NCBI RefSeq assembly: GCF_900289195.1
Contig: NZ_OMOH01000001.1
Coordinates: 388,706 to 420,705 of the forward strand
Source: Propionibacterium ruminifibrarum
GTDB taxonomy: Bacteria > Actinomycetota > Actinomycetes > Propionibacteriales > Propionibacteriaceae
DNA: 32,000 nt
Reading direction: 5' to 3'
The translations under genes were made by a program, and so were the position numbers. Positions 772-24,238 of the stretch are shown piece by piece. The notes under the pieces are model-generated. The model made no database searches and was not told the origin of the DNA. It saw nothing but the letters and a program-made list of their open reading frames with translations. Within the stretch, counting starts at the first letter, position 1. Each line of letters opens with the position of its first letter.

Positions 772-3700
772 TCAGCGCTGGGGCCGGACGAAGGGGAAGC
801 TCAGCACCTGGCGGATCGTGGCGCCGGTGAGCGCCATCACCAGCCTGTCCAGGCCGATCCCCAGCCCGCCCGTGGGGGGCATGCCGAGTTCGAGGGCGGC
901 GAGGAACTCCTCGTCGACCTCCATGGCCTCCGGATCCCCCTGGGCGGCCTGCCAGGACTGCTCGACCAGGCGGCTGCGCTGCACGAGCGGATCGGCGAGC
1001 TCGGAGTAGGCGGTGCCCAGCTCCATGCCGCCGGCGACCAGGTCCCAGCGCTCCACCAGCCCGGGCTCGCTGCGGTGGGGCGCGGTCAGCGGCGAGGTCT
1101 CGGCCGGGAAGTCGAGGTAGAAGGTGGGCATCACGGTCATCGGCTCCACCAGTTCGCCGTAGAGCTCCTCCAGCACCCTCCCCGGCCCCCAGGTCGCTCC
1201 GGTCTCGATGCCGTGGGCGTGTGCCAGGTCGACCAGCTCACCCAGATCGGTGCTCAACGAGACCTCACGGCCGAGCGCCTGCGAGACGGCGTCGCACACC
1301 CTCGCCCGGGGCCACTGGCCCGAGATGTCGGTGAGCCGCATCGCCCCGTCGGCGCCGGGCAGCGGCATCGCCTCGCGGCCGTGCACGGCCGCCGCGGCCC
1401 GCTGGATGATGCGCTGGGTCAGCAGCAGCATGTCGATGTAGTCGGCAAAGGGCTGGTATGCCTCCACCACGGTGAACTCCGGGTTGTGGGAGGAGTCCGC
1501 GCCCTCGTTGCGGAAGTTCTTCCCGATCTCGAAGACCGCCCCGAAACCGGCCACCACGAGCCTCTTCAACGCCAACTCCGGGGCTATGCGCAGCACCAGG
1601 TCGGTGTCGTAGGCGTTGATGTGGGTACGGAAGGGGCGGGCGCTCGCGCCGCCGTGCACCGTGTTGAGCATCGGGGTCTCGACCTCGTGGAAGCCGGCCT
1701 CGGACAGGCAGCCCCGCACCGCGGCGATGGCCCGGCTGCGGGCGGCCAGCAGTTCCAGCTGGTCGGGGTGGACGATGAGGTCGAGACAGCGGTTGCGCAC
1801 CCTCGCCCGGGGGTCGTCGAAACCTCCCCAGGGGATCGGCTGCAGGGCCTTCGCCAGCACCTGCCACGAACTCACGAGCAGCGACGGGGTCCCGTTGCGG
1901 GACCGTCCCGCGGCGGCGTGCACGCCCACCAGGTCGCCGCGGTCGAGGAGCCGCGCGGCCCTCGCCACCTCGGCGCGACCCAGGACGTCGGCCTCGAGGA
2001 CGAGCTGGTGCGATGCCCCGGCGTCGACCAGGTCGACGAAGCAGACCCCGCCGTGGTGGCGGACGGCCCGCACCCGGCCGACGATCTCGACACCGGGGTC
2101 GACTGCGGCATCGGCCGGCAGGTCGCGCAGCCACACGGCGTTCCGGTTCCCGACCGGGTAGCCCGGCTCGCCGACGGCGCGCAGCGCCTCCAGGTGTGCG
2201 AGCCGCTGCCGGGACTGGTCGCTGCGGCGCACCGTGTCGATCTCGGGGGGCCGCGCCTCGGTGAGTTCCCTCAGCTCGGCCAGCTCCGCCGGCCCCAGTG
2301 TCGCGGACGACGGCGCGCCCCGGTGCAGCCAGAACAGGTCCGGCAGGAAGCCCTCGGCCAGCATGGCGGCCCCGACGACCTGAGGCGCCGTCAGCGGGGT
2401 GGGCAGCACCAGGTAACGCGGCCGCCACTCGGGACGGTACTTCGCGTTGGAACGGTACAAACGCTGGATCTGCCAGAACCGGTCCAGGGCGCCCAGCATC
2501 CTCGAGCCCGCCCGGTTGATCGGCGCCGCGGCCACGTCCTCGGCCTGGGCGAAGACGTGGCGCAGGAACGCGAAGTTCAGCGAGACCCGGCGGATGGCAT
2601 GCCCCTTGCCCCAGACCATGAGCTCGGCGAGCAGGAACTCGTTGACCCCGTTGGGGGCCTGCGGGTCGCGCCGCATGAGGTCCAGTGAGAGCCCGTAGCG
2701 GCCCCAGGGCAGGAAGGTCATCATGGCCAGCGGGCGGTCGGACTCGTCCCGCACCGTGGCCACCACGATGCGGGGGTCGGCCTCGTCGCCGAGGCGTCCG
2801 AGTTCCATCGAGTAGCCGCGCTCGGTCTCGTCGCCGCGCCAGCGTTCGGCCAGCGCCCTCACCTCGTCGATCTGCTCGGGGGCCAGCTCGCCCTGGAAAC
2901 CGATGACGGCGCGCAGTCCGTCGCGTCTGGCCCGGGCCCAGGCGCGACGCACCTCGCCCATCGCGGTGCTGTTGAGCTGGAAGGCTGCGGTGTCGAGGAC
3001 GGCCTCGTCGCCCAGACGCAGTACGGTGAAACCGAGAGCGAGGGCGTAGGCCCTTGCGCCGGCCTCGCTGCACGCCAGCACGGCGGGAGTCCAGCCGTAG
3101 CGGCGGCTCTCGGCGTGCCAGGATTCGATCGTCCTCCCCCAGCACGTTGGGTCGCCGATCGGGTCGCCGGAGGCCAGCGCCACCCCGCCGAAGACCTGGT
3201 AGCCGATCGCGGCCCGCCGTGACTCGTCGAAGTACAGCAGCCGCTCGCGGCGGGTGCTCACATAGCCCAGCGAGTCGTCCTCACCGTGATCGAGCAGCAG
3301 CCTCCGCAGGTGCAGTTCGTTGCCCGGCTCCCAGGAGCCCGCCGGACGCGCCGTCCGGATGAAGACGACGACCGCCCCGATCACCGAGGCGCCGAGGATG
3401 AGCGAGGTGATGAAGGGTACGACGCCACCGACCTGGGTGCCCTGCCAGGCCGGCGGCAGGGTGATGTCGACCGATCTCGCGAGCACGGCAAGGGTCTGTC
3501 GCCATGGCTCGCCGGAGTCGTCGCGCAGCAGGACGAGCAGGTGGGCCACCGCCGTGGCGAGCAGCCCGCCGCACAGCAGCACGAGGACGGCACGCAGCCA
3601 CGAGCCCGGCGCGAAGCGTGCCGGGAACGCCGGCCACAGCCAGATCACCAGGGCGCAGGCCGCCACCGAGACGGCCACCAGGACGACGGCCAGCACCAGG

Positions 3701-4080
3701 GTCGGCACGAAGAGCACCGAGGTCTCCGCGGGGCCCTCCACGGTTCCGGCGGTGATCTCCACGGAGTCCCTGAACCAGATCATCAGCACGAGGATCGTGA
3801 TCGCCCGCAGGACGCCCAGCAGCTGGAACAGCAGCACCAGCAGCAGGGCCAGTCGCTTGCGGTGCACCAGGCCGTGGGTGATGACCGCCATGAGCGCCAC
3901 CGAGACCAGTGACGCCCCCACCGGCAGGTTCAGCAGCGCGATGGCGAAGTCCACCCACCACGGCGCCTCGTCGCGGTGCAGAAGCCGGTACCTGCACCAC
4001 AGCACCAAGGCGCAGACGGTGCCGATCGCGTAGATCCAGCTGAGCGCGTTCGCGGCCCGCTGCCGCCGCAGGGCCCTCAT
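772..4080 (-). CDS. lysX: Bifunctional lysylphosphatidylglycerol synthase / lysine--tRNA ligase (MprF-like membrane domain + DUF2156 + class II LysRS), LysX type
   Basis: The N-terminal ~240 aa are polytopic hydrophobic (WVDFAIALLNLPVGASLVSVALMAV...). The middle matches the aminoacyl-PG synthase C-domain. The C-terminus carries class II LysRS motifs (FEIGKNFRNEG, GLGIGLDRLVMAL). Start chosen at ATG 4078-4080 (MRALRRQRAANAL), which overlaps the upstream gene's TGA as ATGA. The longer 1336-aa ORF extension was rejected. Confidence 0.9.
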   Translation of the reverse strand: MRALRRQRAANALSWIYAIGTVCALVLWCRYRLLHRDEAPWWVDFAIALLNLPVGASLVSVALMAVITHGLVHRKRLALLLVLLFQLLGVLRAITILVLMIWFRDSVEITAGTVEGPAETSVLFVPTLVLAVVLVAVSVAACALVIWLWPAFPARFAPGSWLRAVLVLLCGGLLATAVAHLLVLLRDDSGEPWRQTLAVLARSVDITLPPAWQGTQVGGVVPFITSLILGASVIGAVVVFIRTARPAGSWEPGNELHLRRLLLDHGEDDSLGYVSTRRERLLYFDESRRAAIGYQVFGGVALASGDPIGDPTCWGRTIESWHAESRRYGWTPAVLACSEAGARAYALALGFTVLRLGDEAVLDTAAFQLNSTAMGEVRRAWARARRDGLRAVIGFQGELAPEQIDEVRALAERWRGDETERGYSMELGRLGDEADPRIVVATVRDESDRPLAMMTFLPWGRYGLSLDLMRRDPQAPNGVNEFLLAELMVWGKGHAIRRVSLNFAFLRHVFAQAEDVAAAPINRAGSRMLGALDRFWQIQRLYRSNAKYRPEWRPRYLVLPTPLTAPQVVGAAMLAEGFLPDLFWLHRGAPSSATLGPAELAELRELTEARPPEIDTVRRSDQSRQRLAHLEALRAVGEPGYPVGNRNAVWLRDLPADAAVDPGVEIVGRVRAVRHHGGVCFVDLVDAGASHQLVLEADVLGRAEVARAARLLDRGDLVGVHAAAGRSRNGTPSLLVSSWQVLAKALQPIPWGGFDDPRARVRNRCLDLIVHPDQLELLAARSRAIAAVRGCLSEAGFHEVETPMLNTVHGGASARPFRTHINAYDTDLVLRIAPELALKRLVVAGFGAVFEIGKNFRNEGADSSHNPEFTVVEAYQPFADYIDMLLLTQRIIQRAAAAVHGREAMPLPGADGAMRLTDISGQWPRARVCDAVSQALGREVSLSTDLGELVDLAHAHGIETGATWGPGRVLEELYGELVEPMTVMPTFYLDFPAETSPLTAPHRSEPGLVERWDLVAGGMELGTAYSELADPLVQRSRLVEQSWQAAQGDPEAMEVDEEFLAALELGMPPTGGLGIGLDRLVMALTGATIRQVLSFPFVRPQR

Positions 4081-5784: not shown

Positions 5785-6846
5785 TCACTTCAGGTCGCGG
5801 AAGAACCGGTCCCAGGGCATCTCGAGGGGAGCGTCCTCGGCGACCACCGAGTAGAGGAAGCGGCACAGCGGGTACTCGTCGGCGCCGATGACACCCCGCT
5901 CGGTCAGCGGTCCGAGCGCCTTGCCGATGACCTTGATGGCCGCGACGCCCTCGAGCGTCACGCCCTTCATGCGCTCCTCCTGCACCTGTGAGAAGGGGAT
6001 ACCCTCGCCGACGAAACCGCCGGCCTTGACGTTGCGTCCGCCCATCGAGGTGACGAACATGTCGCCCACTCCGCCCAGGCCGTCCCCGGTCTCCGGTTCG
6101 CCGCCCATGAGCTTGATGAAGGAGCGCAGCTCCTTCTGCCCCTGTGCGAAGACCGCTGCGCCGTAGTTGTACATGACGTAGCGGTCGTCCTGCTTGCCGG
6201 CCTTGCGCAGCAGGCCCTGCGCGAAGCCTGCGGCGAAGGCGTAGACGTTCTTCGTTGCCGCGCCGGTCTCGTGTCCGACGAAGTCGGTGGACGTCCACAC
6301 GTGGTAGTAGTCGGTGCGGAAGAGATCCGCGATGTACTCGAGGTCCTGCTTGTCCTGGCCGCAGAAGACCACGCAGGTGTCGTGGTGGACGGCAACCTCG
6401 CCTGCGATGGAGGGGCCGACGACGGCGTTCCACGAGACCTGCTCGGCCAGCTGGGGGTCGAAGTAGGAGCGCAGCACGTCGGGCAGGATGTGCATCGTGC
6501 CGTCCTCGTCGGCCCGCATGCCCTTGGTGACGCACAGGAGCTTCTGCCCGGGCCTCATCAGCCCGGCCAGCTGCTCACCGGCCCACTCGAGACCGAAGGA
6601 GTTCACGCCGCACATGACGACATCGGCGTCGGCGATGGCCTCGGCCGCGTCCTCCAACTGGTAGGCGCGGACGCCGTCGTTGACCTTGAGCCCGAGGTCG
6701 GGGTGCACGCCTGTCCGTTGAATCGAGTCGATGATCTCCCGGTCGAGGAAGGTGCCGACGAGCCGGACGTCGTTGCCGTTCTCGGAGGTCGGGAAGGACA
6801 GGGCCGTGGCCATGATGCCCGAGCCCAGCGCAGCGATGACTGCCAT
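5785..6846 (-). CDS. NAD(P)H-dependent glycerol-3-phosphate dehydrogenase (GpsA) family protein
   Basis: N-terminal Rossmann motif AALGSGIMA. GpsA landmarks are present: VTKGM, VVGPSIAGEV, KNVYAFAAGFAQGL and TSMGGRNVKAG. An AAGGGA Shine-Dalgarno-like sequence lies 7-8 nt upstream of ATG 6846. Confidence 0.85.
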   Translation of the reverse strand: MAVIAALGSGIMATALSFPTSENGNDVRLVGTFLDREIIDSIQRTGVHPDLGLKVNDGVRAYQLEDAAEAIADADVVMCGVNSFGLEWAGEQLAGLMRPGQKLLCVTKGMRADEDGTMHILPDVLRSYFDPQLAEQVSWNAVVGPSIAGEVAVHHDTCVVFCGQDKQDLEYIADLFRTDYYHVWTSTDFVGHETGAATKNVYAFAAGFAQGLLRKAGKQDDRYVMYNYGAAVFAQGQKELRSFIKLMGGEPETGDGLGGVGDMFVTSMGGRNVKAGGFVGEGIPFSQVQEERMKGVTLEGVAAIKVIGKALGPLTERGVIGADEYPLCRFLYSVVAEDAPLEMPWDRFFRDLK

Positions 6847-10041: not shown

Positions 10042-10118
10042 TGGTGGGGCGTGTGGGGCTCGAACCCACGACCCAGGGATTATGAGTCCCCTGCTCTGAC
10101 CTGCTGAGCTAACGCCCC
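10042..10118 (-). tRNA. tRNA-Met (anticodon CAU), elongator type; tRNA-Ile2 (lysidine) not excluded
   Basis: The reverse complement GGGGCGTTAGCTCAGCAGGTCAGAGCAGGGGACTCATAATCCCTGGGTCGTGGGTTCGAGCCCCACACGCCCCACCA folds as a 77-nt cloverleaf. It has a 7-bp acceptor stem with a G1-C72 pair (so not an initiator), anticodon loop CTCATAA, T-loop TTCGAGC and an encoded CCA. Confidence 0.9.
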
Positions 10119-10165: not shown

Positions 10166-11038
10166 TCAGCGCGGGCACAGCCCATCGACCAGAGCGCCGA
10201 GCCATGCGGCGATCCCGGCCGGGCCGTCGCACAGCACGTCGGCGCGTTCGGCGAGTTCGGGCACCTCCGCCGAACCGGAGACGACCACCGCGCCCGGGTG
10301 CTCCTCGTCGCGCCAGGCCCGCACCGCGTCGAAGGCCGCGATGTCGCCTCTGTCGTCCCCGCAGAAGGCGAGTGCGGCGGGGTCCAGTCCGGCCACGAGT
10401 TCACGCACCACGTCGCCCTTCGTCAGGGCGCTGGCGCGCAGCTCGATGACGTCGCGCCCCGGTTCGACACCCAGACGGAGTTCGCTCGCCAGGGCACGCA
10501 GCCCCGGTTCGAGCGCGGCGAGCGCGGCATCGGGGTCGGTGCACGAGCGGGTGTGCACGCCGATCGCCAGGCCCTTGTCCTCCAGCCGCACCCCCTCGAC
10601 CTGGCGGCCCGCGGCCGCCGCGCGGTCGACGAGTTCGGGGATCCGGCGCCTCGCCGCCCGCACGGCCTCGGGAACGGGGGGTACGGTGACCTCGCCGGTG
10701 GCGCCGTCCCAGCGCTCCGCGCCGTACTGGCCGAAGATGCGCAGCCGCTTGGCGTGCGCAAGACGGTCGAGGCCGCCCAGGTCGAGCACCGTGCGCACGG
10801 GGCGGCCGGTGACGACGGCGACGCACCGGATCCGCCCGGCCAGGGCGTCCACGGCGTCCAGGGCGGCGGGCAGGGGCCGGGCGTCCTCGGGCCGTTCGAC
10901 GATCGGTGCCAGCGTGCCGTCGAAGTCGAGGCAGACCACGGCCCGTTCGGGCCTGTCGATGACCGCCTGCTGGACGCTCCGGGCCCAGCGTGTCATGGGC
11001 CGCGCGGCCGGGTGCTGCGGGACGTGTGAACTGCTCAT
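10166..11038 (-). CDS. otsB: Trehalose-6-phosphate phosphatase (HAD superfamily)
   Basis: HAD motif I LDFDGTLAP, then VVTGRP, and a late GDDRGD motif. Start at ATG 11038 (MSSSHV...); ATG 10996 is the alternative. The longer ORF-track start at 11188 would overlap otsA. Confidence 0.85.
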   Translation of the reverse strand: MSSSHVPQHPAARPMTRWARSVQQAVIDRPERAVVCLDFDGTLAPIVERPEDARPLPAALDAVDALAGRIRCVAVVTGRPVRTVLDLGGLDRLAHAKRLRIFGQYGAERWDGATGEVTVPPVPEAVRAARRRIPELVDRAAAAGRQVEGVRLEDKGLAIGVHTRSCTDPDAALAALEPGLRALASELRLGVEPGRDVIELRASALTKGDVVRELVAGLDPAALAFCGDDRGDIAAFDAVRAWRDEEHPGAVVVSGSAEVPELAERADVLCDGPAGIAAWLGALVDGLCPR

Positions 11039-11130
11039 GGGTTCACTGTGCCAGAAGGCGTGCACACCCGGCGCGGACCCGCCTTGGTAGCCTTGAGGAA
11101 AATCAGTCGAAGTCAAGGGGGTCTTCGCCC

Positions 11131-12615
<1,485 letters not shown>

Positions 12616-12630
12616 CTGCTGAACGCCCCG

Positions 12631-12659
12631 GGGAGGCAGTTGCACGATTCCGGCCTCCC
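12631..12659 (+). terminator. Hairpin 16 nt after the otsA stop (possible terminator)
   Basis: GGGAGGC (12631-12637) and GCCTCCC (12653-12659) form a 7-bp stem with a 15-nt loop. No U-tract follows. Confidence 0.3.
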
Positions 12660-12711
12660 AGGCGGACCGAACCGGCTCCATGCTGGATTCTTCCCGCGCG
12701 TGTACTAGGGT

Positions 12712-12885
12712 CTACGGGGTCAGCCGGCCACGGCTGATGCCGCGTTCTCAGCGAAGCCGGTGCGAATCCGGCGCTGTCCCGCAACGGTGATGGGGCCATG
12801 GGCCCCGAGCCCGGTCGCCTGAACGTGGCGGTAATCGGCTCCCGGTTGAGGAGAACGGCCCCGGCCGTGTCCCCTTGACCCCATT
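12712..12885 (+). promoter_or_regulatory. Cobalamin (B12) riboswitch
   Basis: The conserved core reads on the + strand: TCAGCCG-gcca-CGGCTGA hairpin, then AGCGAAGCCGGTGCGAATCCGGCGCTGTCCCGCAACGGTGA, a GGGGCC-atg-GGCCCC hairpin and a B12-box-like GAGCCCGGTCGCCTG. Boundaries are approximate and no covariance-model search was run. Confidence 0.8.
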
Positions 12886-13040
12886 CGGTGAAGGACGGCC
12901 CGGTGATCGGCTCTCGCTCCTGCGGTGCGGCTGCACTCCGCGCGCCGTCCGCCCTCGGTCCAGGCGCCGGGGAATCCTCCACGGCCGACGGGCGGTCCCT
13001 GCCGGTGGCCCCCTCGGGGCGGCCTCTGCCGGCGAATCCC

Positions 13041-13622
13041 TCAGGCGGGCAGCTTCTGCTGCCCGGGCATCCAGGTCAGGTAGGCCACCTGGCCGTGACG
13101 CAGCCGGTCCCAGCGCACCCGGCGGTGGCCCAGCCCGCCGAGCATCGACGTGAAGCAGCAGCCCATGTCGGAGTGGCCGACGACGATGACACGGCTGTTC
13201 ACGCCGGCGGCGACCTGTCCGAGGAAGACACGAAGGCGGGCGTAGACGTCGACGACCGACTCGCCGCCGCCCCAGCGCACCTCGGTGACGTCCAGGCCCG
13301 GCGGGGTGGACTCGGCGGCGAGCTCTCCCGCCTCGGCGCCGTCGAGGCGACCGTGATTCTGCTCGCGCAGCAGGGCCGTGGTCTTCACCGGCAGGCCGGT
13401 GACGAGGGCGATCTGCTCGGCGGTGCGGCGGGCGCGCACCATGTCGGAACTCCACAGGGCGTCGGCGCCCCAGCCCGCGAGCTGCCTGGCGGCGGCCTTG
13501 GCCTGCGCGCGGCCGCGCGCGGTGAGATCGGGGTTCATCTGCCCGCCGAGGACGCGCCCTCCGAGGTTCCCCTCGGACTCCCCGTGACGCACCAGTGCGA
13601 ATTCGATACGGGCCTGCCTCAT
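13041..13622 (-). CDS. Histidine phosphatase family protein (candidate alpha-ribazole-5'-phosphate phosphatase, CobC-like, by context)
   Basis: FALVRHGESEGN (the RHG catalytic motif) sits near the N-terminus and VVGHSD lies later; 193 aa. The CobC-like role is inferred only from adjacency to the cob operon. Confidence 0.85.
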   Translation of the reverse strand: MRQARIEFALVRHGESEGNLGGRVLGGQMNPDLTARGRAQAKAAARQLAGWGADALWSSDMVRARRTAEQIALVTGLPVKTTALLREQNHGRLDGAEAGELAAESTPPGLDVTEVRWGGGESVVDVYARLRVFLGQVAAGVNSRVIVVGHSDMGCCFTSMLGGLGHRRVRWDRLRHGQVAYLTWMPGQQKLPA

Positions 13623-13660
13623 GTCAGCAGACTAGTGGGGGCCGGACGATCATGAGGCAG
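13614..13660. repeat. Perfect 10-bp inverted repeat spanning both divergent start codons
   Basis: CTGCCTCATG (13614-13623) and CATGAGGCAG (13651-13660) are exact reverse complements separated by 27 nt. Each arm contains an ATG plus the next two codons, so both genes begin ATG AGG CAG (MRQ). Confidence 0.6.
13629..13634 (-). promoter_or_regulatory. Candidate -10 hexamer for a leaderless phosphatase transcript
   Basis: The minus strand reads TAGTCT (fits TANNNT), followed by 6 nt (gctgac) and then the ATG. This is the -12 to -7 geometry expected for actinobacterial leaderless mRNAs. Confidence 0.35.
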
Positions 13661-14704
13661 CGCATACACCCCAGCGGGCACGTGGCCGGTCACCCGGGTC
13701 GCACGACCGAAGGACTGGGCAGGGGCCTGGGTCTCGTCGCCGGGCTGCTCGCGGACCGTGTTCTGCTCGACCCGCCGAACGCCGCCCACCCGGTGGCCTG
13801 GTTCGGCCGGTGGGCCGGCTGGTTGGAGCAACGCATGTGGGCCGACACGGCGCCCCGCGGCGCCGCCTACTGCCTCATCGCCGGCGCCCCCGCCGCGGCC
13901 GCCGGACTCTTGCTGGAGGCGGCCGGGCGGCGCGGCCTCGTCGCACGCATCGTCACCACGGGTGCCGCCACGTGGGTGGTGCTCGGCGCCGGCTCGCTGG
14001 CCCGCGAGGGCCTCACGATGGCCGACCAGCTCGTCTACGGCGACCTCGACGGCGCCCGCGAGCAGCTCCCGCACCTGTGCGGGCGACTCGCGGCCGGGCT
14101 GGACGAACCGGAGCTGGCCCGCGCCACCGTCGAGTCGATGGCCGAGAACACCGCCGACTCGGCCGTCGCCTCACTGTTCTGGGGCGCCGTCGGCGGCGTC
14201 CCGGCGATGCTCGTTCACCGTGCCGTCAACACGCTCGACGCCATGGTCGGCCACCACAACGAACGCTACGAGCACTTCGGCGCCTTCTCGGCCCGACTCG
14301 ACGACGCCCTCGACCTGGTGCCGGCGCGCGTCACCGGCGCCCTGGCCTGCGCGCTCGCACCCGCCGTCGGCGGCAGCGCCCCGCGCGCCGCACGCATCAT
14401 GGTCCGTGACGCCACCAACCACCCCAGCCCGAACGGCGGGTGGTGCGAGGCGGCCTGGGCCGGCGCGCTCGGCGTCCAGCTGGGCGGGCGCAACGTCTAC
14501 CCGGGCGGGCGCGTCGAGCACCGGGGGCTGCTCGGCGAGGGCCCACGGCCCGATGGCGCCGCGGTGCGCGCGGCCAGCAGGCTCGTCCTCCTGGTCAGCG
14601 GGGCCGCCGGCGCGCTGGCCGGGCTCGGGGCGCTCGCCGCCTGCCGGGCCCGGCCCCCACGGACACGCCGTCGTGGTGCACGCCACCGGAAAGGACAACC
14701 ATGA
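13652..14704 (+). CDS. cbiB: Adenosylcobinamide-phosphate synthase (CbiB/CobD)
   Basis: HPVAWFGRWAGWLE and HPSPNGGWCEAAWAGALGVQLGG are CbiB landmarks, and the protein is multi-pass hydrophobic. Start at ATG 13652 (MRQRIHPS); the ORF-track start at 13595 would overlap the divergent gene. Confidence 0.85.
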   Translation: MRQRIHPSGHVAGHPGRTTEGLGRGLGLVAGLLADRVLLDPPNAAHPVAWFGRWAGWLEQRMWADTAPRGAAYCLIAGAPAAAAGLLLEAAGRRGLVARIVTTGAATWVVLGAGSLAREGLTMADQLVYGDLDGAREQLPHLCGRLAAGLDEPELARATVESMAENTADSAVASLFWGAVGGVPAMLVHRAVNTLDAMVGHHNERYEHFGAFSARLDDALDLVPARVTGALACALAPAVGGSAPRAARIMVRDATNHPSPNGGWCEAAWAGALGVQLGGRNVYPGGRVEHRGLLGEGPRPDGAAVRAASRLVLLVSGAAGALAGLGALAACRARPPRTRRRGARHRKGQP

Positions 14705-16149
14705 GTGGCCTCCTCATGACCGGGACGAGTTCGGATGCGGGCAAGTCCGCCCTCGTCACGGGCCTGTGCCGGATAGCGGCCCGGCGCGGCATCGACGTCG
14801 TCCCCTTCAAGGCGCAGAACATGTCGAACAACTCGATGGTCTGTCCCGACGGCGCCGAGATCGGACGCGCCCAGTACCTCCAGGCCACCGCCGCCGGGGT
14901 CGTCCCCGCCGCCGGCATGAACCCCGTCCTGCTCAAGCCGGGCACCGACCGCCGCAGCTTCATCGTCCTCATGGGCTCGCCGGCCGGTGAACTCGACGCC
15001 GGGGAGTACGCCACCGGACGCCGCCGGCTCGCCGAGGCGGCCTTCGACGCCTACGCGGCCCTGGCTGCCGAGCACGACCTGGTGATCTGCGAGGGCGCCG
15101 GCAGCCCGGCCGAGATCAACCTGCGCTCCGGTGACTACGTCAACATGGGCCTGGCCAGGCGCTTCAACCTGCCCACCGTCATCATCGGCGACATCGACCG
15201 CGGCGGCGTGCTCGCCAGCCTGTACGGCACCTGGGCACTGCTGGACGAGCCCGACCGGGCGCTGCTGCGCGGCTACGTCATCAACAAGTTCCGCGGTGAC
15301 GCCTCGGTCCTCGCCCCCGGCCTGGCCGAGATCAGCGCGCGCACCGGCATGACCGGCTACGGCGTGCTGCCCTGGCTCGCGGGCGTGTGGATCGACGGCG
15401 AGGACGCCCTGAACGTCGACCGCTGGGCCCGCGAGGAGGACCGGGACCGTGCTGGTCTGCGGGTCGCGGCCATCCGGCTGCCGCGCATCTCGAATGCCAC
15501 CGACGTCGAGGCGCTGGCCGCCGAACCCGGCGTGGACGTGCAGGTGACCGATGACCCGTCCGTGGCAGAGCGGGCCGACCTGCTCGTCCTGCCCGGCTCC
15601 CGCTCCACCGTCAGCGACCTCGCCTGGCTGAACGAGCGCGGCCTCGGGCAGATCATCGCCCACCGCCACGCGCAGGGCCGCCCGGTGCTGGGCATCTGCG
15701 GCGGCTACGAGATGCTCGCCCAGCGGATGGACGACGAGATCGAGTCGGGGGCCGGCGTCGTGCCCGGCCTGGGACTGCTGCCGGTGCGCGTGCGGTTCGA
15801 CGGCGACAAGACCGTCCGCGTCGCCACCTACACCTACCGGGGAATGGACGTCACCGGCTACGAGATCCACCACGGCCTCTGCGAGGTCACCGGCGGCGAG
15901 CCCTTCCTCGACGGCGTGCGCAGCGCCAACACCTGGGGGACCATGCTGCACGGCAGCCTCGAGAACGACGCCTTCCGGCGCGCCCTCCTGTCCGAGGTCG
16001 CCGCCGCCACCGGCTCGGGGTGGACGCCGGACGAGAACGCCCCGGGATACGCGCGCCGCCGAGAGCAGATGATCGAGACGCTGGCCGACGCGATGGAGGA
16101 GCACCTCGACATCGACGCCCTGCTGGCGCTGGCCGAGGAGCACGCATGA
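14701..16149 (+). CDS. cobQ: Cobyric acid synthase (CobQ/CbiP)
   Basis: MSGLLMTGTSSDAGKS P-loop N-terminus and a C-terminal glutamine amidotransferase motif GICGGYEML. The ATG overlaps the cbiB TGA (ATGA at 14701-14704). Confidence 0.9.
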   Translation: MSGLLMTGTSSDAGKSALVTGLCRIAARRGIDVVPFKAQNMSNNSMVCPDGAEIGRAQYLQATAAGVVPAAGMNPVLLKPGTDRRSFIVLMGSPAGELDAGEYATGRRRLAEAAFDAYAALAAEHDLVICEGAGSPAEINLRSGDYVNMGLARRFNLPTVIIGDIDRGGVLASLYGTWALLDEPDRALLRGYVINKFRGDASVLAPGLAEISARTGMTGYGVLPWLAGVWIDGEDALNVDRWAREEDRDRAGLRVAAIRLPRISNATDVEALAAEPGVDVQVTDDPSVAERADLLVLPGSRSTVSDLAWLNERGLGQIIAHRHAQGRPVLGICGGYEMLAQRMDDEIESGAGVVPGLGLLPVRVRFDGDKTVRVATYTYRGMDVTGYEIHHGLCEVTGGEPFLDGVRSANTWGTMLHGSLENDAFRRALLSEVAAATGSGWTPDENAPGYARRREQMIETLADAMEEHLDIDALLALAEEHA

Positions 16150-16805
16150 CGAGTGACCGCCCCGAACTGAACCGCACCGTCGCCGATCCAGGGATCACCA
16201 CGGCGGACGCCGCCGCCGGGCACGCCGCGGCACCGAGCACCGCCCGGCTGCGCCGCAAGGCCCGGCTCATCGTCAACACCGGCGACGGGAAGGGCAAGTC
16301 CACCGCCGCCTTCGGCATGGGCCTGCGCGGCTGGGCGCACGGCTGGTCGATCGGCGTCTTCCAGTTCGTGAAGTCCGGCAAGTGGCCCGCCGGTGAACGG
16401 CTCGCCTACGAACGGCTGGGCGCCCTGCACGAGGCGGAGGGTGTCGGTGGGGCCGTCGAGTGGCAGTGCTTCGGCCAGGGCTGGAGCTGGCTGCGGGGCA
16501 CCGACCCGGCCGACGACGAGGCCATGGCACAAGCCGGCTGGGCGCACGTGAGCGCCCTCATCGAGGCCCAGACGCACGACCTGTACATCCTCGACGAGTT
16601 CACCCACGTCCTGGCCAGGGGGTGGGTCGACCCCCAGGAGGCGGCACGCCTCCTCGCCGGCCGGCCCGGCGTGCAGCACGTGGTCATCACCGGGCGCGGC
16701 TGCCCGCAGCCGATCATCGACGTGGCCGACCTCGTCACATCCATGGACAAGATCAAACACCCCTTCGACAAGGGGGAACGTGGTCAGGTGGGGATCGAGT
16801 GGTGA
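16146..16805 (+). CDS. cobO: Cob(I)yrinic acid a,c-diamide adenosyltransferase (CobO/CobA/BtuR)
   Basis: TGDGKGKSTAAFG P-loop, ILDEF, and the KHPFDKG...GIEW C-terminus. ATGA overlap with the cobQ stop (16146-16149). Confidence 0.9.
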   Translation: MTSDRPELNRTVADPGITTADAAAGHAAAPSTARLRRKARLIVNTGDGKGKSTAAFGMGLRGWAHGWSIGVFQFVKSGKWPAGERLAYERLGALHEAEGVGGAVEWQCFGQGWSWLRGTDPADDEAMAQAGWAHVSALIEAQTHDLYILDEFTHVLARGWVDPQEAARLLAGRPGVQHVVITGRGCPQPIIDVADLVTSMDKIKHPFDKGERGQVGIEW

Positions 16806-19345
16806 ACACCTCGGCAGCAGTGACAATGCCCCGCGTCGTCATCGGCGCGCCGAGCTCGAGCACCGGCAAGACGACCGTGGCGATCGGCCTCATGGCCGCG
16901 CTCAGCGCGCGCGGTCACGCCGTGGCCGGTTTCAAGGTGGGGCCGGACTACATCGATCCCGGCTACCACGCGCTGGCGTGCGGACGTCCCGGGCGCAACC
17001 TCGACCCCTTCCTGTGCGGCGCCGAACGCATCGTGCCGCTGTTCGAGCACGGCGCACTGGCCCCGACGCCGGCCGACGTGGCGGTCGTCGAGGGCGTCAT
17101 GGGCATGTTCGACGGCAAGCTCGGCCCCTGGCCGGACGGCACCGACGACCCGGTGGGCTTCGGCTCGACCGCCCACGTGGCGCGGCTGCTGGACGCCCCG
17201 GTGATCCTCGTCGCCGACACCTCGCACGCCTCCCGCAGCACCGCAGCCGTCTGCGCCGGGATGGCCGCGTTCGACGAGCGCATCCGCGTCGGCGGTGTCA
17301 TCCTCAACCGGGTGATGAGCCCGCGGGTGGCCGACGAGATCGAGGCGGGCTGCGCCCGCTTCGGCCTGCCGGTCCTCGGGCGAATCCCCACGGCCGGCCA
17401 GGTACGGGTCGGTTCCCGGCACCTGGGGCTCGTCACGGCCGACGAGCAGGGCGCCCGGGCCGAGGAGGTCGTGGGGCGGGCGGGGGACCTGATCGGCGAG
17501 CACGTCGACCTGGACGCCGTGGTGTCCCTGGCGGGCACCGCCGGCCGGCTCCCCGGCACCCCCTGGGACCCCGCCGCCGAACTGGCCCGGGTGGGCGGGA
17601 GCGCCGTCATCGCCATGGCCGCCGGCCAGGCCTTCACCTTCCGCTACACCGAGACCGCCGAGCTTCTCGAGGCAGCGGGGTGCACGGTGGTGCCGTTCGA
17701 CCCGCTACTCGACGAGCAGCTGCCCCGCGGCACCGCCGGCGTCTACCTGGGCGGGGGCTTCCCCCAGATCCACGCCGCCGCGCTGGCCGCCAACGGGCCG
17801 CTGCGCGCCCAGATCCGCGCCCTGGCAGACCAGGGCATGCCCGTGGTCGCCGAGTGCGCCGGCCTGCTCTACCTGTGCCGCAGCCTCGACGGCCTGCAGA
17901 TGGCCGGGGTCCTCGACCTCGACTCGGCGATGACACCGCGCCTCACGATGGGTTACCACGTGGCCACGGCCGCAGCCGACAGCTTCCTGGTGCGTGCCGG
18001 CGAACAGGTCCGCGCCCACGAGTTCCACCGCACGACCACCGAACCGGCCATCGGCGGCGCACCCCCGACCGTTGCCTGGGACGTCGACGGCCGCGGCGAG
18101 GGCGCAGTCGCCTCCCCCGCCGGCGGCCTCGCCAGCGTGCACGCCAGCTACCAGCACCTGCACTGGGCCGGGTGCCCGCGGCTGGCCGAACGATTCGCCG
18201 CCGCCGCCGCCGGCTTCTCCGCTCGCCCTGCCCCAGCTGCTCCCCCGGCGGCCGCATCCCAGCCCGGGGCGATCGACCTGAGCCATCACGGCGACCAGGA
18301 CGTGGCGCCCGGGGCGACGGACCTGGCCGTCAACGTGCACGCGCCCACTCCCCCGCCCTGGCTCGTGCAGGAACTCACCGCCCGCGCCGACGGCTGGGGC
18401 CGCTACCCCGACGCCGAACCGGCCCGCCGCGCCATCGCCGCCCTGCACGACGTGCGACCGGAACAGGTGCTCGTCACCGCCGGCGGTTCGGAGGCGTTCA
18501 GCCTCATCGCCTCGGCCCTCACACCGGCATGGGCCACCATCGTGCACCCGCAGTTCACCGAGCCGGAGCTGGCGCTGCGCGCCAAGGGCCGCCCCGTCGG
18601 ACGTCTCGTCCTGCGTCCCGAGGAGGGTTTCACGCTCGACCCCGGACGCGTCCACCCGCGCAGCGACCTGGTCGTCATCGGCAACCCGACGAACCCCACC
18701 GGCGTGCTGCACCCGGCGGGAGCACTGCGCGAGCTGCGCGCGCCGGGACGCGTCGTGGTCGTCGACGAGGCCTTCATGGACAACGTGCCCGGCGAGCCGG
18801 ACTCGCTCATCGGCCCCGCCATGGACGGCCTACTCGTGGTGCGTTCGCTGACGAAGACCTGGTCGATCCCGGGGCTGCGGATCGGCTACGTCGTCGGCGA
18901 CCCGGACCTCGTCGCGGGTCTGGCGGCGCACCAGCCGGCCTGGCCCGTCTCGGCGCCCGCCATTGACGCCGCACTGGCCACGGCCCGGCCGGAGGCCGTC
19001 GCCCTGGCGAGGCGGCAGGCACGCGAGACGGCCGCGGACCGGCAGGTCCTCGTCGCCGAGCTCACCAGGATCGGCGTGGCCACGGTGCCCGCCCCGGCCG
19101 GCCCATTCGTCCTCGCCGACCTGCGCGGGCACGACCCGCAGCGGCTGCGGGCGCACCTGCGCGCCGCCGGGTTCACGGTGCGCGGCGGCGAGTCCTTCCC
19201 CGGGCTGGGGGCCGGCTGGCTGCGTCTGGCCGTGCGCGACCCGGACACGACCAGGGCCTTCGTCAGGGCCCTCGACGACCACCTCGCCGCGGAGCGCGGC
19301 GAGGACACGACAAGGCAAGGAGCTGATGACACACATGCACGGTGA
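16802..19345 (+). CDS. cobB: Fusion protein: cobyrinate a,c-diamide synthase (CobB/CbiA) + PLP-dependent threonine-phosphate decarboxylase-like aminotransferase domain
   Basis: N-terminal part: VVIGAPSSSTGKTT, GPDYIDPGYH and the amidotransferase motif ECAGLLYL. An Ala/Pro-rich linker (AAAAAGFSARPAPAAPPAAASQPGA, about 18196-18270) follows. C-terminal part: DLSHHGD, NPTNPTG and SLTKTWSIPGLRIGY (PLP lysine). One uninterrupted frame. Start is GTG 16802 (GTGA overlap with the cobO stop) or ATG 16826. Confidence 0.8.
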   Translation: MNTSAAVTMPRVVIGAPSSSTGKTTVAIGLMAALSARGHAVAGFKVGPDYIDPGYHALACGRPGRNLDPFLCGAERIVPLFEHGALAPTPADVAVVEGVMGMFDGKLGPWPDGTDDPVGFGSTAHVARLLDAPVILVADTSHASRSTAAVCAGMAAFDERIRVGGVILNRVMSPRVADEIEAGCARFGLPVLGRIPTAGQVRVGSRHLGLVTADEQGARAEEVVGRAGDLIGEHVDLDAVVSLAGTAGRLPGTPWDPAAELARVGGSAVIAMAAGQAFTFRYTETAELLEAAGCTVVPFDPLLDEQLPRGTAGVYLGGGFPQIHAAALAANGPLRAQIRALADQGMPVVAECAGLLYLCRSLDGLQMAGVLDLDSAMTPRLTMGYHVATAAADSFLVRAGEQVRAHEFHRTTTEPAIGGAPPTVAWDVDGRGEGAVASPAGGLASVHASYQHLHWAGCPRLAERFAAAAAGFSARPAPAAPPAAASQPGAIDLSHHGDQDVAPGATDLAVNVHAPTPPPWLVQELTARADGWGRYPDAEPARRAIAALHDVRPEQVLVTAGGSEAFSLIASALTPAWATIVHPQFTEPELALRAKGRPVGRLVLRPEEGFTLDPGRVHPRSDLVVIGNPTNPTGVLHPAGALRELRAPGRVVVVDEAFMDNVPGEPDSLIGPAMDGLLVVRSLTKTWSIPGLRIGYVVGDPDLVAGLAAHQPAWPVSAPAIDAALATARPEAVALARRQARETAADRQVLVAELTRIGVATVPAPAGPFVLADLRGHDPQRLRAHLRAAGFTVRGGESFPGLGAGWLRLAVRDPDTTRAFVRALDDHLAAERGEDTTRQGADDTHAR

Positions 19346-20405
19346 AGCGCTGAGGCAGGCCATCGAGAAGATCGGCCCCCTCGACGAGGACGCCCGGGCG
19401 AGAGCCCTGGCCTGGCAGGACGACCTGACGAAGGTTCCGGGCTCGCTCGGCGACCTGGAGGCCTTCGGTGTGCAGTTGTGCGCCATCTCCGGGCAGTGCC
19501 CGCCCCCGGTGCCCGCCCCCGGCTTCGTCGGTGTCTTCGAGGGGGACCACGGCGTGCAGACCAACAAGGTCTCCCCCTGGCCCCAGGAGATCACCTACAC
19601 CATGGGGGTGAACCTGGCGTCGGGCGGGGCCTCGGTCAGTGTCCTGGCTCGCCATGCCGGGGCCGATTACAGGCTCTACAACGTGGGCGGCCTCAAGGAG
19701 CTCCCCGAGGGCGACCACATCGTCAACTGCCGTGTCGCGGCCGGCACCGCCGACCTGACCCAGGGGCCGGCGATGACCCGAGAGCAGGCCACCGAGGCCC
19801 TCGACATCGGTGTCGAAGCCGCCCGGGACGCCGTCTCGTCCGGCGCGAGGGCGCTCGTTCCCGGCGAACTCGGTATCGGCAACACCACCCCGGCCGCCGC
19901 CCTCATCGCCGCCTACACCGGGCGCCCCGCCGATGCCGTCACCGGGCGCGGCGCCGGCGCCGACGACGAGATGCTCGCCCGCAAGACGCGCACCGTCGAA
20001 CAGGGCCTGGCGGCCAACCACGTCGCCGATCAGGACGCCCTGGGCATCCTGGCCGGCGTCGGCGGGCTCGAGCACGCCGCGATGGCGGGCTTCATCCTGG
20101 GCGGAGCCGCCGCCCGCGTCCCCGTCGTCCTGGACGGGGTCATCGCGGTCTCGGCGGCCCTCGCCGCCGTCGCCCTGGCCCCACAGGCCAGGGACTACCT
20201 GTTCGCCGGCCACCTGGGGCCCGAACCGGGTCTGCGTGTCGGCCTCGAGACACTCGGCCTGACACCGCTCATCCAGCTCGGCATGCACCTGGGCGAGGGC
20301 TCGGGCGCCGCGCTGGCCCTGCCCGTTCTCGCCGCCGCCGCCAAGATCATGCGCGAGATGTCCCACTTCTCCGACGGCCAGGTGAGCGGGGAGCGCGAGG
20401 TATGA
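19326..20405 (+). CDS. cobT: Nicotinate-nucleotide--dimethylbenzimidazole phosphoribosyltransferase
   Basis: GELGIGNTTPAAAL and MHLGEGSGAALA are CobT landmarks. AAGGAG lies just upstream. ATG 19326 (or 19335) overlaps the 3' end of the fusion gene by 20 (or 11) nt. Confidence 0.9.
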   Translation: MTHMHGEALRQAIEKIGPLDEDARARALAWQDDLTKVPGSLGDLEAFGVQLCAISGQCPPPVPAPGFVGVFEGDHGVQTNKVSPWPQEITYTMGVNLASGGASVSVLARHAGADYRLYNVGGLKELPEGDHIVNCRVAAGTADLTQGPAMTREQATEALDIGVEAARDAVSSGARALVPGELGIGNTTPAAALIAAYTGRPADAVTGRGAGADDEMLARKTRTVEQGLAANHVADQDALGILAGVGGLEHAAMAGFILGGAAARVPVVLDGVIAVSAALAAVALAPQARDYLFAGHLGPEPGLRVGLETLGLTPLIQLGMHLGEGSGAALALPVLAAAAKIMREMSHFSDGQVSGEREV

Positions 20406-21073
20406 GCCGCGTCACCATCGACCTGCCCGACGAAGACCCGCGCACCGGGGCACTCCTCGAGGCGCTGCAGGCGTTCGGCGCCCGCCCCACCCCGGCCGTG
20501 GCGCGGCGGACCCTCGTCACCGGCGGGGCGCGCTCGGGCAAGTCGAGCTATGCCGAGTCGCTGCTCGCCGGCGAGCGGGTGGTCGACTACGTGGCCACGA
20601 GCGCACGCGACGAGGACGACCCGGAGTGGATGGCGCGCATCGCGGCCCACGTGGCCCGCCGGCCCGCCGGCTGGAACACGATCGAGACGCTCGACGTGGC
20701 CGCCGTCCTGGCATCCGACGGGCCGCCCGTCCTCGTGGACTGTCTGAGCGTGTGGCTGACCCGCGTCCTCGACGAGACCGGGTTCTGGGCCGACCGGGAG
20801 GCGGCCGAACCGGCGGTGCGGGCGCGCGTCGACGAGCTGGCCGCCGCCCTGGGCGCCAGCCGGCGCACCGTGGTGCTCGTCACCAACGAGGTCGGGTCCG
20901 GGATCGTCCCGGCCGGTGCGGGAAGCCGGGGCTTCCGCGACTGGCTGGGCGTCCTCAACGCCACCATCGCCGATCTGTGCGACCGGGCCGTCCTGTGCGT
21001 GGCGGGCCGGGCCCTCGACCTGCCGGCCACAATGACGCTGGCCTCCCCGGCCCGCGCCCCGGAGCAGGCCTGA
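20402..21073 (+). CDS. cobU: Bifunctional adenosylcobinamide kinase / adenosylcobinamide-phosphate guanylyltransferase
   Basis: VTGGARSGKS P-loop and VTNEVGSGIVP. ATGA overlap with the cobT stop. The ~35-aa N-terminal extension depends on that start choice. Confidence 0.85.
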   Translation: MSRVTIDLPDEDPRTGALLEALQAFGARPTPAVARRTLVTGGARSGKSSYAESLLAGERVVDYVATSARDEDDPEWMARIAAHVARRPAGWNTIETLDVAAVLASDGPPVLVDCLSVWLTRVLDETGFWADREAAEPAVRARVDELAAALGASRRTVVLVTNEVGSGIVPAGAGSRGFRDWLGVLNATIADLCDRAVLCVAGRALDLPATMTLASPARAPEQA

Positions 21074-21846
21074 TGGCCGGCGGTTTCGTCACCGCATGGG
21101 CGATGTTCACCGTCATCCCGGCGCCGACGGTCGAGGACTTCAGCAGGCCGGCATGCGCCCGGGCCATGCGGATGATCCCGGTCATCGGCCTGTGCCTGGG
21201 CGTGCTGGCCGGTGCCGCCGCTGCCCTCATCGAGTTCCTCGACGGCGGCCGGCTGCTCGCCATGGCGGCCGGCCTGGCGGTCCTGGCGCTGGCCAACGGC
21301 TGCTTCCACCTGGACGGCCTGGCCGACACGGCCGACGGCCTGGGCTCTCGCAAGCCACCCGAAGAGGCGCTGCACATCATGAAGCAGTCCGACATCGGGC
21401 CGATGGGAGTCGTCGCGGTCGTCGGCGTGCTCGCCCTGGAGCTCACCGCAGCCGCCTCCCCGCACCTGGCCGGCTGGCGCGGGGTCTGGGCGCTCGTGAC
21501 GATGCCGATGGTCGCCCGCACCGGCGCGGTCCTGGCCAGCCGCCGCGGCGTGCCCTGCGCGCCGACGAGCAGCCTGGGGCGGCTCTTCGCGGACCTGACG
21601 ACACCGGTCACTCTCGTCCTCGACCTGGCCGGCGTGCTCGTCGTCTCGGCGGTCAGCGGCTGGCTGCTGTTCGGCGTCCGCGTCGGCGCCGCAGCGGCCG
21701 CGGCCTGCGCGATCGCCTGGGTCGTCGAGGCACTGTGGCAGCGTCACCTGCTGTCCCGGCTGGGCGGTATGACCGGTGACACCTATGGCAGCCTCATCGA
21801 ACTGACCGGGCTCGGCTATCTGCTCGCCCTGGCACTCCTCGCCTGA
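21073..21846 (+). CDS. cobS: Adenosylcobinamide-GDP ribazoletransferase (cobalamin 5'-phosphate synthase)
   Basis: FTVIP, HLDGLADTADG and GGMTGDTYG are CobS landmarks in a polytopic membrane protein. TGATG overlap with the cobU stop. Confidence 0.9.
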   Translation: MAGGFVTAWAMFTVIPAPTVEDFSRPACARAMRMIPVIGLCLGVLAGAAAALIEFLDGGRLLAMAAGLAVLALANGCFHLDGLADTADGLGSRKPPEEALHIMKQSDIGPMGVVAVVGVLALELTAAASPHLAGWRGVWALVTMPMVARTGAVLASRRGVPCAPTSSLGRLFADLTTPVTLVLDLAGVLVVSAVSGWLLFGVRVGAAAAAACAIAWVVEALWQRHLLSRLGGMTGDTYGSLIELTGLGYLLALALLA

Positions 21847-24073: not shown

Positions 24074-24238
24074 AATGGCCTCTTTCGTCGGACGGGCAGC
24101 CTCGCTCGAGCGGCTGCACCCCTGACGGTAAGCGCCGACCCCTCGCCCGTGCAATCTTCCGGTGCCGGCGTGTCGGGCGCCTCCCGTGCCCGCCGCCGTC
24201 CCGGTGAGTCACCAGGGAACCCCTCCACGCGGCCATGG

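Follow-up and report, generated by a model that had tools for sequence, protein, structure and literature searches.

What does a cobalamin (vitamin B12) riboswitch control if the first gene found ahead of it is inverted, that is, encoded by the opposite strand? This question is raised by a 32,000-nt stretch of Propionibacterium ruminifibrarum DNA (70% GC), which in its full length is here called 'the window' and whose positions supply the coordinates used below. On the plus strand of this window a cobalamin riboswitch points into the 3' end of a histidine-phosphatase gene, the latter residing on the minus strand (13041-13622), with cbiB, encoding adenosylcobinamide-phosphate synthase (13652-14704, plus strand), following only thereafter as the first gene of a cobalamin-biosynthesis (cob) operon. 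A first-pass annotation of this DNA had offered two options, i.e., either a riboswitch-gated transcript that reads antisense through the entire phosphatase gene before becoming the operon's mRNA, or instead a riboswitch that controls solely an antisense RNA, as with AspocR of Listeria. Of these, read-through to the cbiB operon fits best, though not as an untranslated RNA, since a Shine-Dalgarno sequence (SD) and a start codon are conserved within it.

The answer which appears moderately probable is that a translational OFF riboswitch gates a long open reading frame (ORF), here termed the 'bridge ORF', and that it is translation, rather than the peptide so produced, which would carry control across to cbiB. 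The first-pass annotation had seen no credible plus strand ORF after the aptamer, and that claim did not survive, as the SD motif GAAGGA is followed by a GTG at 12903 which opens 250 codons (12903-13655, terminated by the TGA at 13653-13655), with both start and frame conserved. A conserved small ORF immediately following the aptamer in relatives had also been named as something that would speak against an antisense interpretation. A conserved ORF is indeed present there, yet it is long and itself constitutes antisense read-through.

The scheme to which the parts, their conservation, and their frame relations point, these three being read from the sequence, would involve in turn a promoter, a ligand response at this locus, translation of the bridge ORF, coupling of that translation to cbiB, and a role for Rho. 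A compact riboswitch would be transcribed from its own promoter, with the SD plus GTG, at 12890-12905, serving as target of the translational OFF switch. Under low B12, ribosomes would start at GTG 12903, translate the 250-codon bridge across the phosphatase antisense, terminate at TGA 13653, and then re-initiate at the overlapping cbiB ATG, 13652; in sister lineages the bridge frame would continue instead, in frame, into cbiB. Translation would keep roughly 750 nt of RNA covered by ribosomes as well as deliver ribosomes to cbiB, and it is through this coverage and delivery that a riboswitch about 825 nt distant could still control cbiB-cobQ-cobO-cobBC-cobT-cobU-cobS. With B12 bound, by contrast, the SD would be occluded and the long antisense stretch left untranslated, presumably to be Rho-terminated or degraded, such that the operon would be off. 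Head-on, plus strand transcription may, in addition, lower expression of the phosphatase, likely from a leaderless mRNA, as an excludon-like side effect that would be secondary.

Put more tentatively, as a possibility falling somewhat short of probable, the antisense strand of the phosphatase gene would be translated routinely as a regulatory conduit, with CbiB fused, in several species including P. freudenreichii, to an extension of about 200 residues. On this conduit reading the bidirectional overlap would be kept open because a stop in the bridge frame would uncouple the operon from its sensor.

The bridge frame and its junction with cbiB

The order riboswitch (plus strand), phosphatase (minus strand), cbiB (plus strand), whose conservation the first-pass annotation had suggested checking, is kept in relatives, that is, in 12 lineages of two genera. 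Ten are Propionibacterium, i.e., the window, L001 (P. australiense), L037, L062, L035, L003 (P. cyclohexanicum), L038, L008, L030 (P. freudenreichii) and L033, and two are Luteococcus, i.e., L007 (L. peritonei) and L023, with L-numbers denoting related loci as compared with the window. Three extra lineages were obtained through a scan of 80 metagenome loci. The nearest comparison is P. australiense, for which CbiB is 84% and the phosphatase 91% identical to that of the window, while the Luteococcus phosphatases are 38-40% identical to the window's.

The bridge ORF is codon-aligned antisense to the phosphatase gene, which 194 of its 250 codons overlap, and across lineages it spans 200-253 codons. 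In 12/12 lineages the equivalent start codon is set in this frame. The intervening spacer, from start codon to phosphatase stop, occurs in ten lengths ranging over 6-147 nt, each of which is a multiple of three: eight in Propionibacterium (30, 33, 45, 51, 93, 111, 138 and 147 nt) along with 12 and 6 nt in Luteococcus. The phosphatase stops of the Propionibacterium lineages are homologous to one another, each protein ending in ...LPx*. In these same coordinates the distance from SD to phosphatase stop covers all three residues modulo 3, which means that changes in spacer length have been matched by shifts of the start codon with respect to the SD. Were the frame free, then the chance of at least seven spacer indels all being frame-preserving would be about (1/3)^7, or roughly 5e-4. 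Such conservation of frame, across at least seven spacer indels, would fit, if indirectly, with cbiB expression that depends on translation of the bridge.

In the stretch between start codon and phosphatase ATG, taken over all 12 lineages, the bridge frame contains 0 stops whereas the other two contain 41 and 59, and an ORF begun in either of the latter would soon run into a stop. An open antisense frame was nevertheless dropped as evidence, since 70-85% of comparable windows are open by chance, i.e., of 193-codon windows read in the codon-aligned antisense frame of high-GC3 genes at these loci. As antisense frames are so often open by chance, the argument rests instead on the conservation of frame and of junction. 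Stop depletion within spacers was set aside as well, being uninformative (244 codons, with 0, 8 and 0 stops by frame); five of those eight stops come from the GTGA start itself. As a separate observation, the L001 spacer (3245-3294) contains a tandem duplication of about 30 nt from the phosphatase 3' end, in which GACGAATCCCTCA is found twice and with the frame kept.

Might the roughly 825 nt instead be an untranslated leader, with the riboswitch gating elongation and the SD plus GTG a remnant of an ancestral, direct riboswitch-cbiB arrangement? The layout is conserved, a remnant is conceivable given that in one Nigerium locus (L013) this SD drives cbiB directly, and the bridge frame, as noted, would be open by chance in the majority of cases. 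A remnant SD and start, however, would not persist across two genera amid diverged flanks, nor would a remnant start hold the bridge frame through the at least seven spacer indels. In addition, no intrinsic terminator follows the aptamer in a scan of 12500-13800, this being a consensus scan that carries little weight in an actinobacterium, and Rho typically acts on long antisense RNA that is left untranslated. An untranslated leader accordingly is viewed as quite unlikely.

At its downstream end the bridge frame follows one of two patterns. In the window the bridge stop, TGA 13653-13655, overlaps the cbiB ATG, 13652, as ATGA. This junction is found in two separate clades, one consisting of the window, L001, L037, L062 and L035, and the other of L. 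peritonei L007, and in all of these the ATG plus A is 29 nt from the phosphatase ATG; for the window that spacing (13623-13651) is just what the first-pass annotation had counted. In L003, L038, L008, L030, L033 and L023, plus the riboswitch-less L034, the bridge frame is instead the cbiB frame, with no stop intervening. In L033, L034 and L038 the interval from the phosphatase ATG to the conserved N-terminus of CbiB contains no canonical start codon, and in these lineages CbiB translation consequently must begin within the region antisense to the phosphatase.

Nigerium supplies what may be earlier forms of this arrangement, its riboswitch being found directly before cbiB with the phosphatase gene absent. 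In L013 (Nigerium sp., 3988-4003) the SD motif and start codon are cbiB's own ribosome-binding site and start. In L016 (Nigerium massiliense, 3914-4001) riboswitch and SD are followed by an ATG, 3927, that begins a 24-codon upstream ORF (uORF), the TGA of which (3999) overlaps the cbiB ATG (3998), and this junction, GGGGGCCGACGATGA, resembles that of the window, GGGGGCCGGACGATCATGA. Leader-ORF coupling, given this uORF with its ATGA, thus exists within the family without any inverted gene. L016 would be, so viewed, an evolutionary intermediate between direct riboswitch-cbiB control and the long bridge ORF, in a putative series that runs from L013, direct, through L016, with short uORF and ATGA, to a long ORF that encloses an inverted phosphatase gene and ends in either ATGA or in-frame fusion.

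The second first-pass option, of a riboswitch which controls antisense RNA only, would have low-B12 RNA repressing the phosphatase by pairing or by polymerase collision, with cbiB expressed from its own promoter. The riboswitch indeed is found at the phosphatase 3' end, pointing into that gene, and the locus has been listed as a putative antisense-acting cobalamin riboswitch (PMC9943018). One relative, L034, retains phosphatase and cbiB without riboswitch, and a possible internal cbiB start, with SD-like GGTGGA, is present in the in-frame lineages. An antisense RNA requires, however, no SD or start codon, no conservation of frame and no ATGA junction, all of which this option leaves unexplained; repressing what is likely a last-step B12 enzyme under B12 scarcity would make little regulatory sense; and the Nigerium riboswitch seemingly controls cbiB with no phosphatase gene present. 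A conserved plus strand -10 element near cbiB also is missing: In 10/12 lineages no plus strand TANNNT is found within -160 to +40 of the junction, which hints, if weakly, that cbiB is without a nearby promoter of its own. Regulation by antisense RNA alone is judged to be unlikely, and less likely than read-through.

Alternatively, the plus strand polypeptide itself could be functional, whether as a separate 250-aa protein or as a CbiB N-terminal domain, making of this a true two-strand overlapping gene pair. The ORF is long, possesses a good SD, and in seven lineages is in frame with cbiB. Constraint on the peptide is not seen, though. The synonymous rate of the overlapped phosphatase gene shows no drop in comparisons between the window and L001 plus six other pairs, with dS for the former pair of 0.34 for the phosphatase versus 0.19-0.29 for neighbours, and with the six other comparisons similar. 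GC at first, second and third codon positions of the plus frame (about 0.93/0.50/0.76) is wrong for a plus strand gene, a Pfam search of the bridge ORF returned no match, and the non-overlapping 5' part of the ORF (6-147 nt) is conserved in neither length nor sequence. With its dS unreduced, and the plus frame having the wrong GC and no Pfam match, it is the phosphatase that is the real protein gene. What is maintained on the plus strand appears to be translatability only, the peptide itself being unconstrained, and a functional polypeptide is viewed as highly improbable.

A number of points weigh against control by bridge translation, particularly against its fusion variant. The lineages, being related, are not fully independent, and to this can be added the frequency with which such antisense frames are open regardless. 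The in-frame lineages carry an SD-like GGTGGA followed by ATG or GTG 39 nt inside of the phosphatase gene, with this internal start lying antisense to the codon for the phosphatase's catalytic His (that of RHG; 13584-13586, minus strand, in the window). That codon is the rare CAT in 4/7 in-frame lineages versus 0/6 ATGA lineages, against a background of 13%, and CAT creates an antisense ATG which is preceded by GGTGGA and overlaps the first 13 phosphatase codons. GGTGGA with its internal ATG or GTG may be an independent cbiB start, a caveat for the prediction of CbiB fusions, which otherwise would entail CbiB bearing an unconstrained N-terminal extension of 200-240 aa, odd for a membrane enzyme. 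Neither a rut signature nor an intrinsic terminator is in evidence, the C/G ratio along the plus strand displaying no clear C-rich, G-poor, rut-like stretch, and the Rho step therefore is speculative. Single-sequence folds of the expression platform vary by lineage, with no single model supported by covariation.

Lastly, L034 demonstrates that the operon is able to exist without the riboswitch promoter. In this lineage (Propionibacterium sp., GCA_047719395.1) riboswitch and promoter have been lost while phosphatase and cbiB are retained, the stop codons of otsA and the phosphatase gene are just 35 nt apart (reverse-complement 2460-2505), and the first bridge-frame start, GTG 2462, overlaps the otsA TGA as GTGA with the frame still open. 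This arrangement suggests that otsA has become the gene to which the L034 cbiB operon is coupled.

Riboswitch, promoter and expression platform

The first-pass call of a plus strand cobalamin riboswitch holds. The covariance search that had been proposed for it gives a significant RF00174 match at 12756-12814, of 36.9 bits versus a gathering score of 31.5 (E=4.8e-6 over the whole window). Based on RF00174 and on a leader alignment of 13 orthologues from Propionibacterium, Luteococcus and Nigerium, the aptamer, which has a short P6 arm, extends over 12720-12827, with a 5' hairpin at 12720-12737, a closing helix in which 12741-12745 are paired with 12823-12827, and a B12 box, GAGCCCGGTCGCCTG, at 12807-12821. 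About 825 nt lie between the aptamer's 3' end and the cbiB ATG; here the first-pass annotation was correct as to the ATG, 13652, but not as to the distance, given as about 770 nt.

The window's match is a local one, covering model positions 51-163 only. Its orthologues score 32.4-37.1 bits against the cobalamin covariance model, the P. freudenreichii element scores 49.6 bits versus a cutoff of 50 on RF01482, and the L. sanguinis element, at 26.9 bits, is below threshold. Could the element be but a decaying relic or chance match, one which no longer regulates anything? The partial nature of the window's Rfam match allows for the thought. In the 13 leaders, however, a core, CAGCGAAGCCGGTG.GAA.CCGG..CTGTCCCGCAACGGTGA, then a short variable hairpin, and then GAGYCCGGTCGCCTG, is invariant or nearly so, and compensatory changes are found at 14/31 consensus base pairs, all in the midst of flanks which cannot be aligned. 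The promoter -10 is conserved as well, and the P. freudenreichii orthologue is reported, in a secondary source, to be ligand-responsive (PMC8123684). A relic is the least probable of the explanations considered, to the point of being nearly negligible. That is, being above the Rfam threshold, with invariant core and covarying helices, this riboswitch is genuine and under selection.

A B12 box placed at GGUUGAGGAGAACGGCC, as by the Rfam global alignment for L001, was rejected as an artefact, with comparison across genera giving GAGCCCGGTCGCCTG instead. The GGUUGAGGAGAACGGCC stretch, which in L001 is located within 2942-3119 (corresponding to 12700-12877 of the window), has the look of a degenerate, second B12 box and includes the SD mimic, GAGGAG. 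Stretches of this type are confined, within the expression platform, to the clade of the window, L001, L037 and L035.

Upstream of the aptamer is TAGGGT (12706-12711, plus strand), a predicted -10 element for the riboswitch transcript. TANNNT is present at the identical alignment position in 12/12 leaders which cover it (12 of the 13 aligned), as TAGGGT, TAAGGT, TAGTGT, TAGGCT, TATGGT or TAGGTT, and amid diverged flanks. The alignment row of L013 begins 3' of this site, at which L013 has TAGTCT. TAGGGT is inferred from this conservation to be the promoter's -10, with transcription expected to start near 12717-12719. A sigma-70 consensus scan of 12500-13800 found no promoter, such scans saying little for an actinobacterium, and with sigma-70 and terminator consensus scans thus uninformative, conserved TANNNT motifs were used in their place.

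Within the expression platform (12828-12902), GAGGAG at 12848-12853 mimics the SD and is followed by a hairpin whose loop is C-rich (12854-12868). An anti-SD stretch spans 12863-12876, and the SD itself, GAAGGA (12890-12895), is about 65 nt 3' of the aptamer and has GTG 12903 7 nt after it. CGAAGG(A/G) is kept in 12/12 lineages and in both Nigerium loci, the adjoining sequence having diverged, and in 12/12 lineages with an inverted phosphatase gene a GTG or ATG is found 5-9 nt after this motif. Alternative pairings are available. GGCCGT (12863-12868) is able to pair with ACGGCC (12854-12859) or instead with the ACGGCC directly after the SD, and the Luteococcus anti-SD and SD covary, i.e., GTCCTTC with GAAGGAC in L007 and TCCCTTC with GAAAGGGA in L023. 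In most lineages the invariant L5 loop (CCC) has its complement in GGG or GGAC at the SD. In minimum free energy folds the SD is partly paired. For the region 3' of the aptamer, RNAalifold predicted no structure shared by the 13 aligned sequences. This anatomy is that of a translational OFF switch, the exact switching mechanism being a putative one.

The phosphatase and surrounding genes

That the inverted gene is a true gene, as had been claimed from the start, is well borne out: The 193-aa product, with RHGESEGN motif, matches PF00300 (histidine phosphatase, branch 1; E=2.6e-36), codon structure is normal for a high-GC gene, and substitutions concentrate at third codon positions of the minus strand frame, with dN/dS of about 0.15 versus L001. 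Its suggested identity as an alpha-ribazole-phosphate phosphatase fares in part. Among NCBIfam models TIGR03162 (ribazole_cobC) matches best, yet with 76 bits versus a cutoff of 162.9, PRK15004 scores 41.8 versus a cutoff of 250, and equivalog status by these cutoffs is missed; the nearest solved structures in a PDB search are generic, i.e., PspA and GpgP. From PDB and NCBIfam searches no specific substrate can be assigned.

The gene's orthologues adjoin, on the other hand, cbiB, cobQ, cobU-cobS or cobB, in four layouts among Propionibacteriaceae and Intrasporangiaceae, and this recurrent linkage to cob genes supports a CobC-like role where sequence similarity alone does not. No other phosphatase was found by Pfam and NCBIfam within the window's cob operon. 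The protein is accordingly retained as a candidate CobC-type alpha-ribazole-phosphate phosphatase. In L031 (Phycicoccus), L032 (Janibacter) and L039 (a metagenomic contig), the phosphatase gene is divergent from cobB/cobA-type genes or from cobU-cobS, without a riboswitch, an arrangement that, despite the sub-cutoff CobC score, supports a putative role for this family in the cobalamin pathway. In Tessaracoccus-type loci the phosphatase gene is co-directional with cbiB and immediately precedes it, a riboswitch being absent from that position; in three such loci (L004, L012 and L019) a full-length cobalamin riboswitch, scoring 38.6-47.9 bits, is found instead between cobQ and the gene that follows it, at about 6380-6540.

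A predicted -10 for the phosphatase mRNA, TAGTCT, is located on the minus strand at 13629-13634, 6 nt upstream of the ATG, and every genome examined has TAGGCT, TAGTCT or TTAGGC at exactly this distance from its phosphatase start. A -10 just 6 nt from the ATG implies a leaderless mRNA, and the promoter is taken on this basis to be contained within the 29-nt gap plus the 5' end of cbiB.

The gene map was drawn from frame-specific GC3 along with Pfam and NCBIfam searches. cbiB matches PF03186 (E=7e-86), and TIGR00380 above its cutoff. Following it on the plus strand, in the order that the first-pass annotation had given, are cobQ (to 16149), cobO (to 16805), cobB, cobT (to 20405), cobU (to 21073) and cobS (to 21846), with frame-specific GC3 unbroken on that strand over 14705-21846. 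What had been called cobB is a cobB-cobC fusion (about 16826-19345; NF053748, bifunc_CobBC, 1136.9 bits), i.e., an a,c-diamide synthase and a threonine-phosphate decarboxylase-type aminotransferase sharing, over 16826-19345, a single open frame.

Upstream, otsA ends on the plus strand at 12615, from where a non-coding gap, 12616-13040, extends to the phosphatase stop. otsB (10166-11188) and a tRNA (10045-10118) are both on the minus strand. Taken at their longest, the otsA and otsB frames are divergent and share about 200 nt (10990-11188). Their true starts are probably further in, the family match of otsA not beginning until about residue 80, and a short divergent promoter region likely is found between the two genes. 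The window's left edge (1-687, plus strand) holds a truncated Peripla_BP_2 substrate-binding protein, of a family that includes binding proteins of siderophore and B12 ABC transporters, and downstream of the cob operon are genes for two MerR-family regulators (23516-24208 and 24718-25434, both minus strand).

Relation to known systems

The riboswitch and its antisense position both are already on record. A P. freudenreichii 'cbiB riboswitch' was predicted in 2003 (Vitreschak, as cited in PMC5644110), and that element, described as possessing a "short right arm", reportedly responds, within a GFP sensor of 213 bp, to several cobalamins (PMC8123684). It is the orthologue of the present element, as L030 has the same synteny, with a short-P6 riboswitch between otsA and phosphatase on the cbiB strand. 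The published accounts consulted place it "upstream of cbiB/cobD" with no mention there of an inverted gene or an ORF. The locus is among those tabulated, for P. acidifaciens, P. australiense and P. freudenreichii, in the supplement to a 2023 survey of antisense-positioned riboswitches (PMC9943018). A literature search found no description of the intervening gene with respect to cbiB control, or of the bridge ORF, and a P. freudenreichii transcriptome preprint contains no strand-resolved data for the cbiB locus. The bridge-ORF architecture appears as such to be new, as a variant of riboswitch-uORF coupling.

Were this reading true, then a translational riboswitch would be reaching across nearly a kilobase and a convergent gene by means of the stop-free antisense of high-GC genes. 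It would offer a testable case in which selection keeps an antisense frame translatable irrespective of what that frame encodes, and would bear on the long-standing debate as to whether translation of antisense ORFs in GC-rich bacteria ever serves a purpose. At least some 'antisense-acting riboswitches', where so classed by position alone, may in fact regulate in the ordinary, sense manner, with a gene further off as their target. In P. freudenreichii, a food-grade and industrial B12 producer, the element would control genes for nucleotide-loop assembly and amidation, and engineering either cbiB riboswitch or phosphatase while unaware of their overlap could unintentionally affect both.

Perhaps the closest parallel is the M. 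tuberculosis ppe2 B12 riboswitch, for which a translated uORF is needed for PPE2 expression, with AUGA termination-reinitiation (Kipkorir et al. 2024, PMC11260477). Likenesses are an actinobacterial cobalamin translational OFF switch, a leader UGA/AUG overlap (AUGA) and cob genes downstream. The counterparts here are an SD and leader start in the platform, conserved in 12/12 lineages plus Nigerium, and ATGA at 13652-13655, found also in L001, L037, L062, L035, L007 and L016. The M. tuberculosis leader is short, however (a FLAG-tagged product of about 6 kDa), and within ordinary leader sequence, while that found here, in a case known solely from its sequence, consists of 200-253 codons over the antisense of a functional, convergent gene and is sometimes fused to cbiB.

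With antisense-acting riboswitches, such as AspocR/pocR of Listeria and the S-box of ubiG in C. acetobutylicum, the riboswitch likewise is found at the 3' end of a gene and points inward, a geometry that the window matches, with the aptamer ending at 12827 and the opposite-strand phosphatase stop at 13041-13043. Those riboswitches yield non-coding antisense RNAs ended by a riboswitch-controlled terminator. Here, instead, SD and start codon are conserved, a scan of 12500-13800 found nothing resembling a terminator, and the antisense stretch meets a co-directional operon at a defined junction.

Class II, env8-type cobalamin riboswitches lack the P6 peripheral extension. The present element resembles these in its short P6 and in an L5 CCC that is complementary to GGG or GGAC in or beside the SD, which would fit with occlusion via a kissing loop, and also in that the P. 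freudenreichii orthologue is reported to accept several cobalamin forms. It differs in possessing a longer platform, of about 75 nt, with additional alternative hairpins.

Excludons, finally, as described from Listeria, are long transcripts which are antisense to one gene and serve as mRNA for a neighbouring, opposite operon (review, PMC7154746). Gene order and the lack of a nearby plus strand -10 are compatible with this type, to the extent that sequence alone can indicate it. The antisense segments of excludons are described as untranslated 5' regions that are not riboswitch-gated, whereas the segment found here would appear to be both translated and ligand-controlled.

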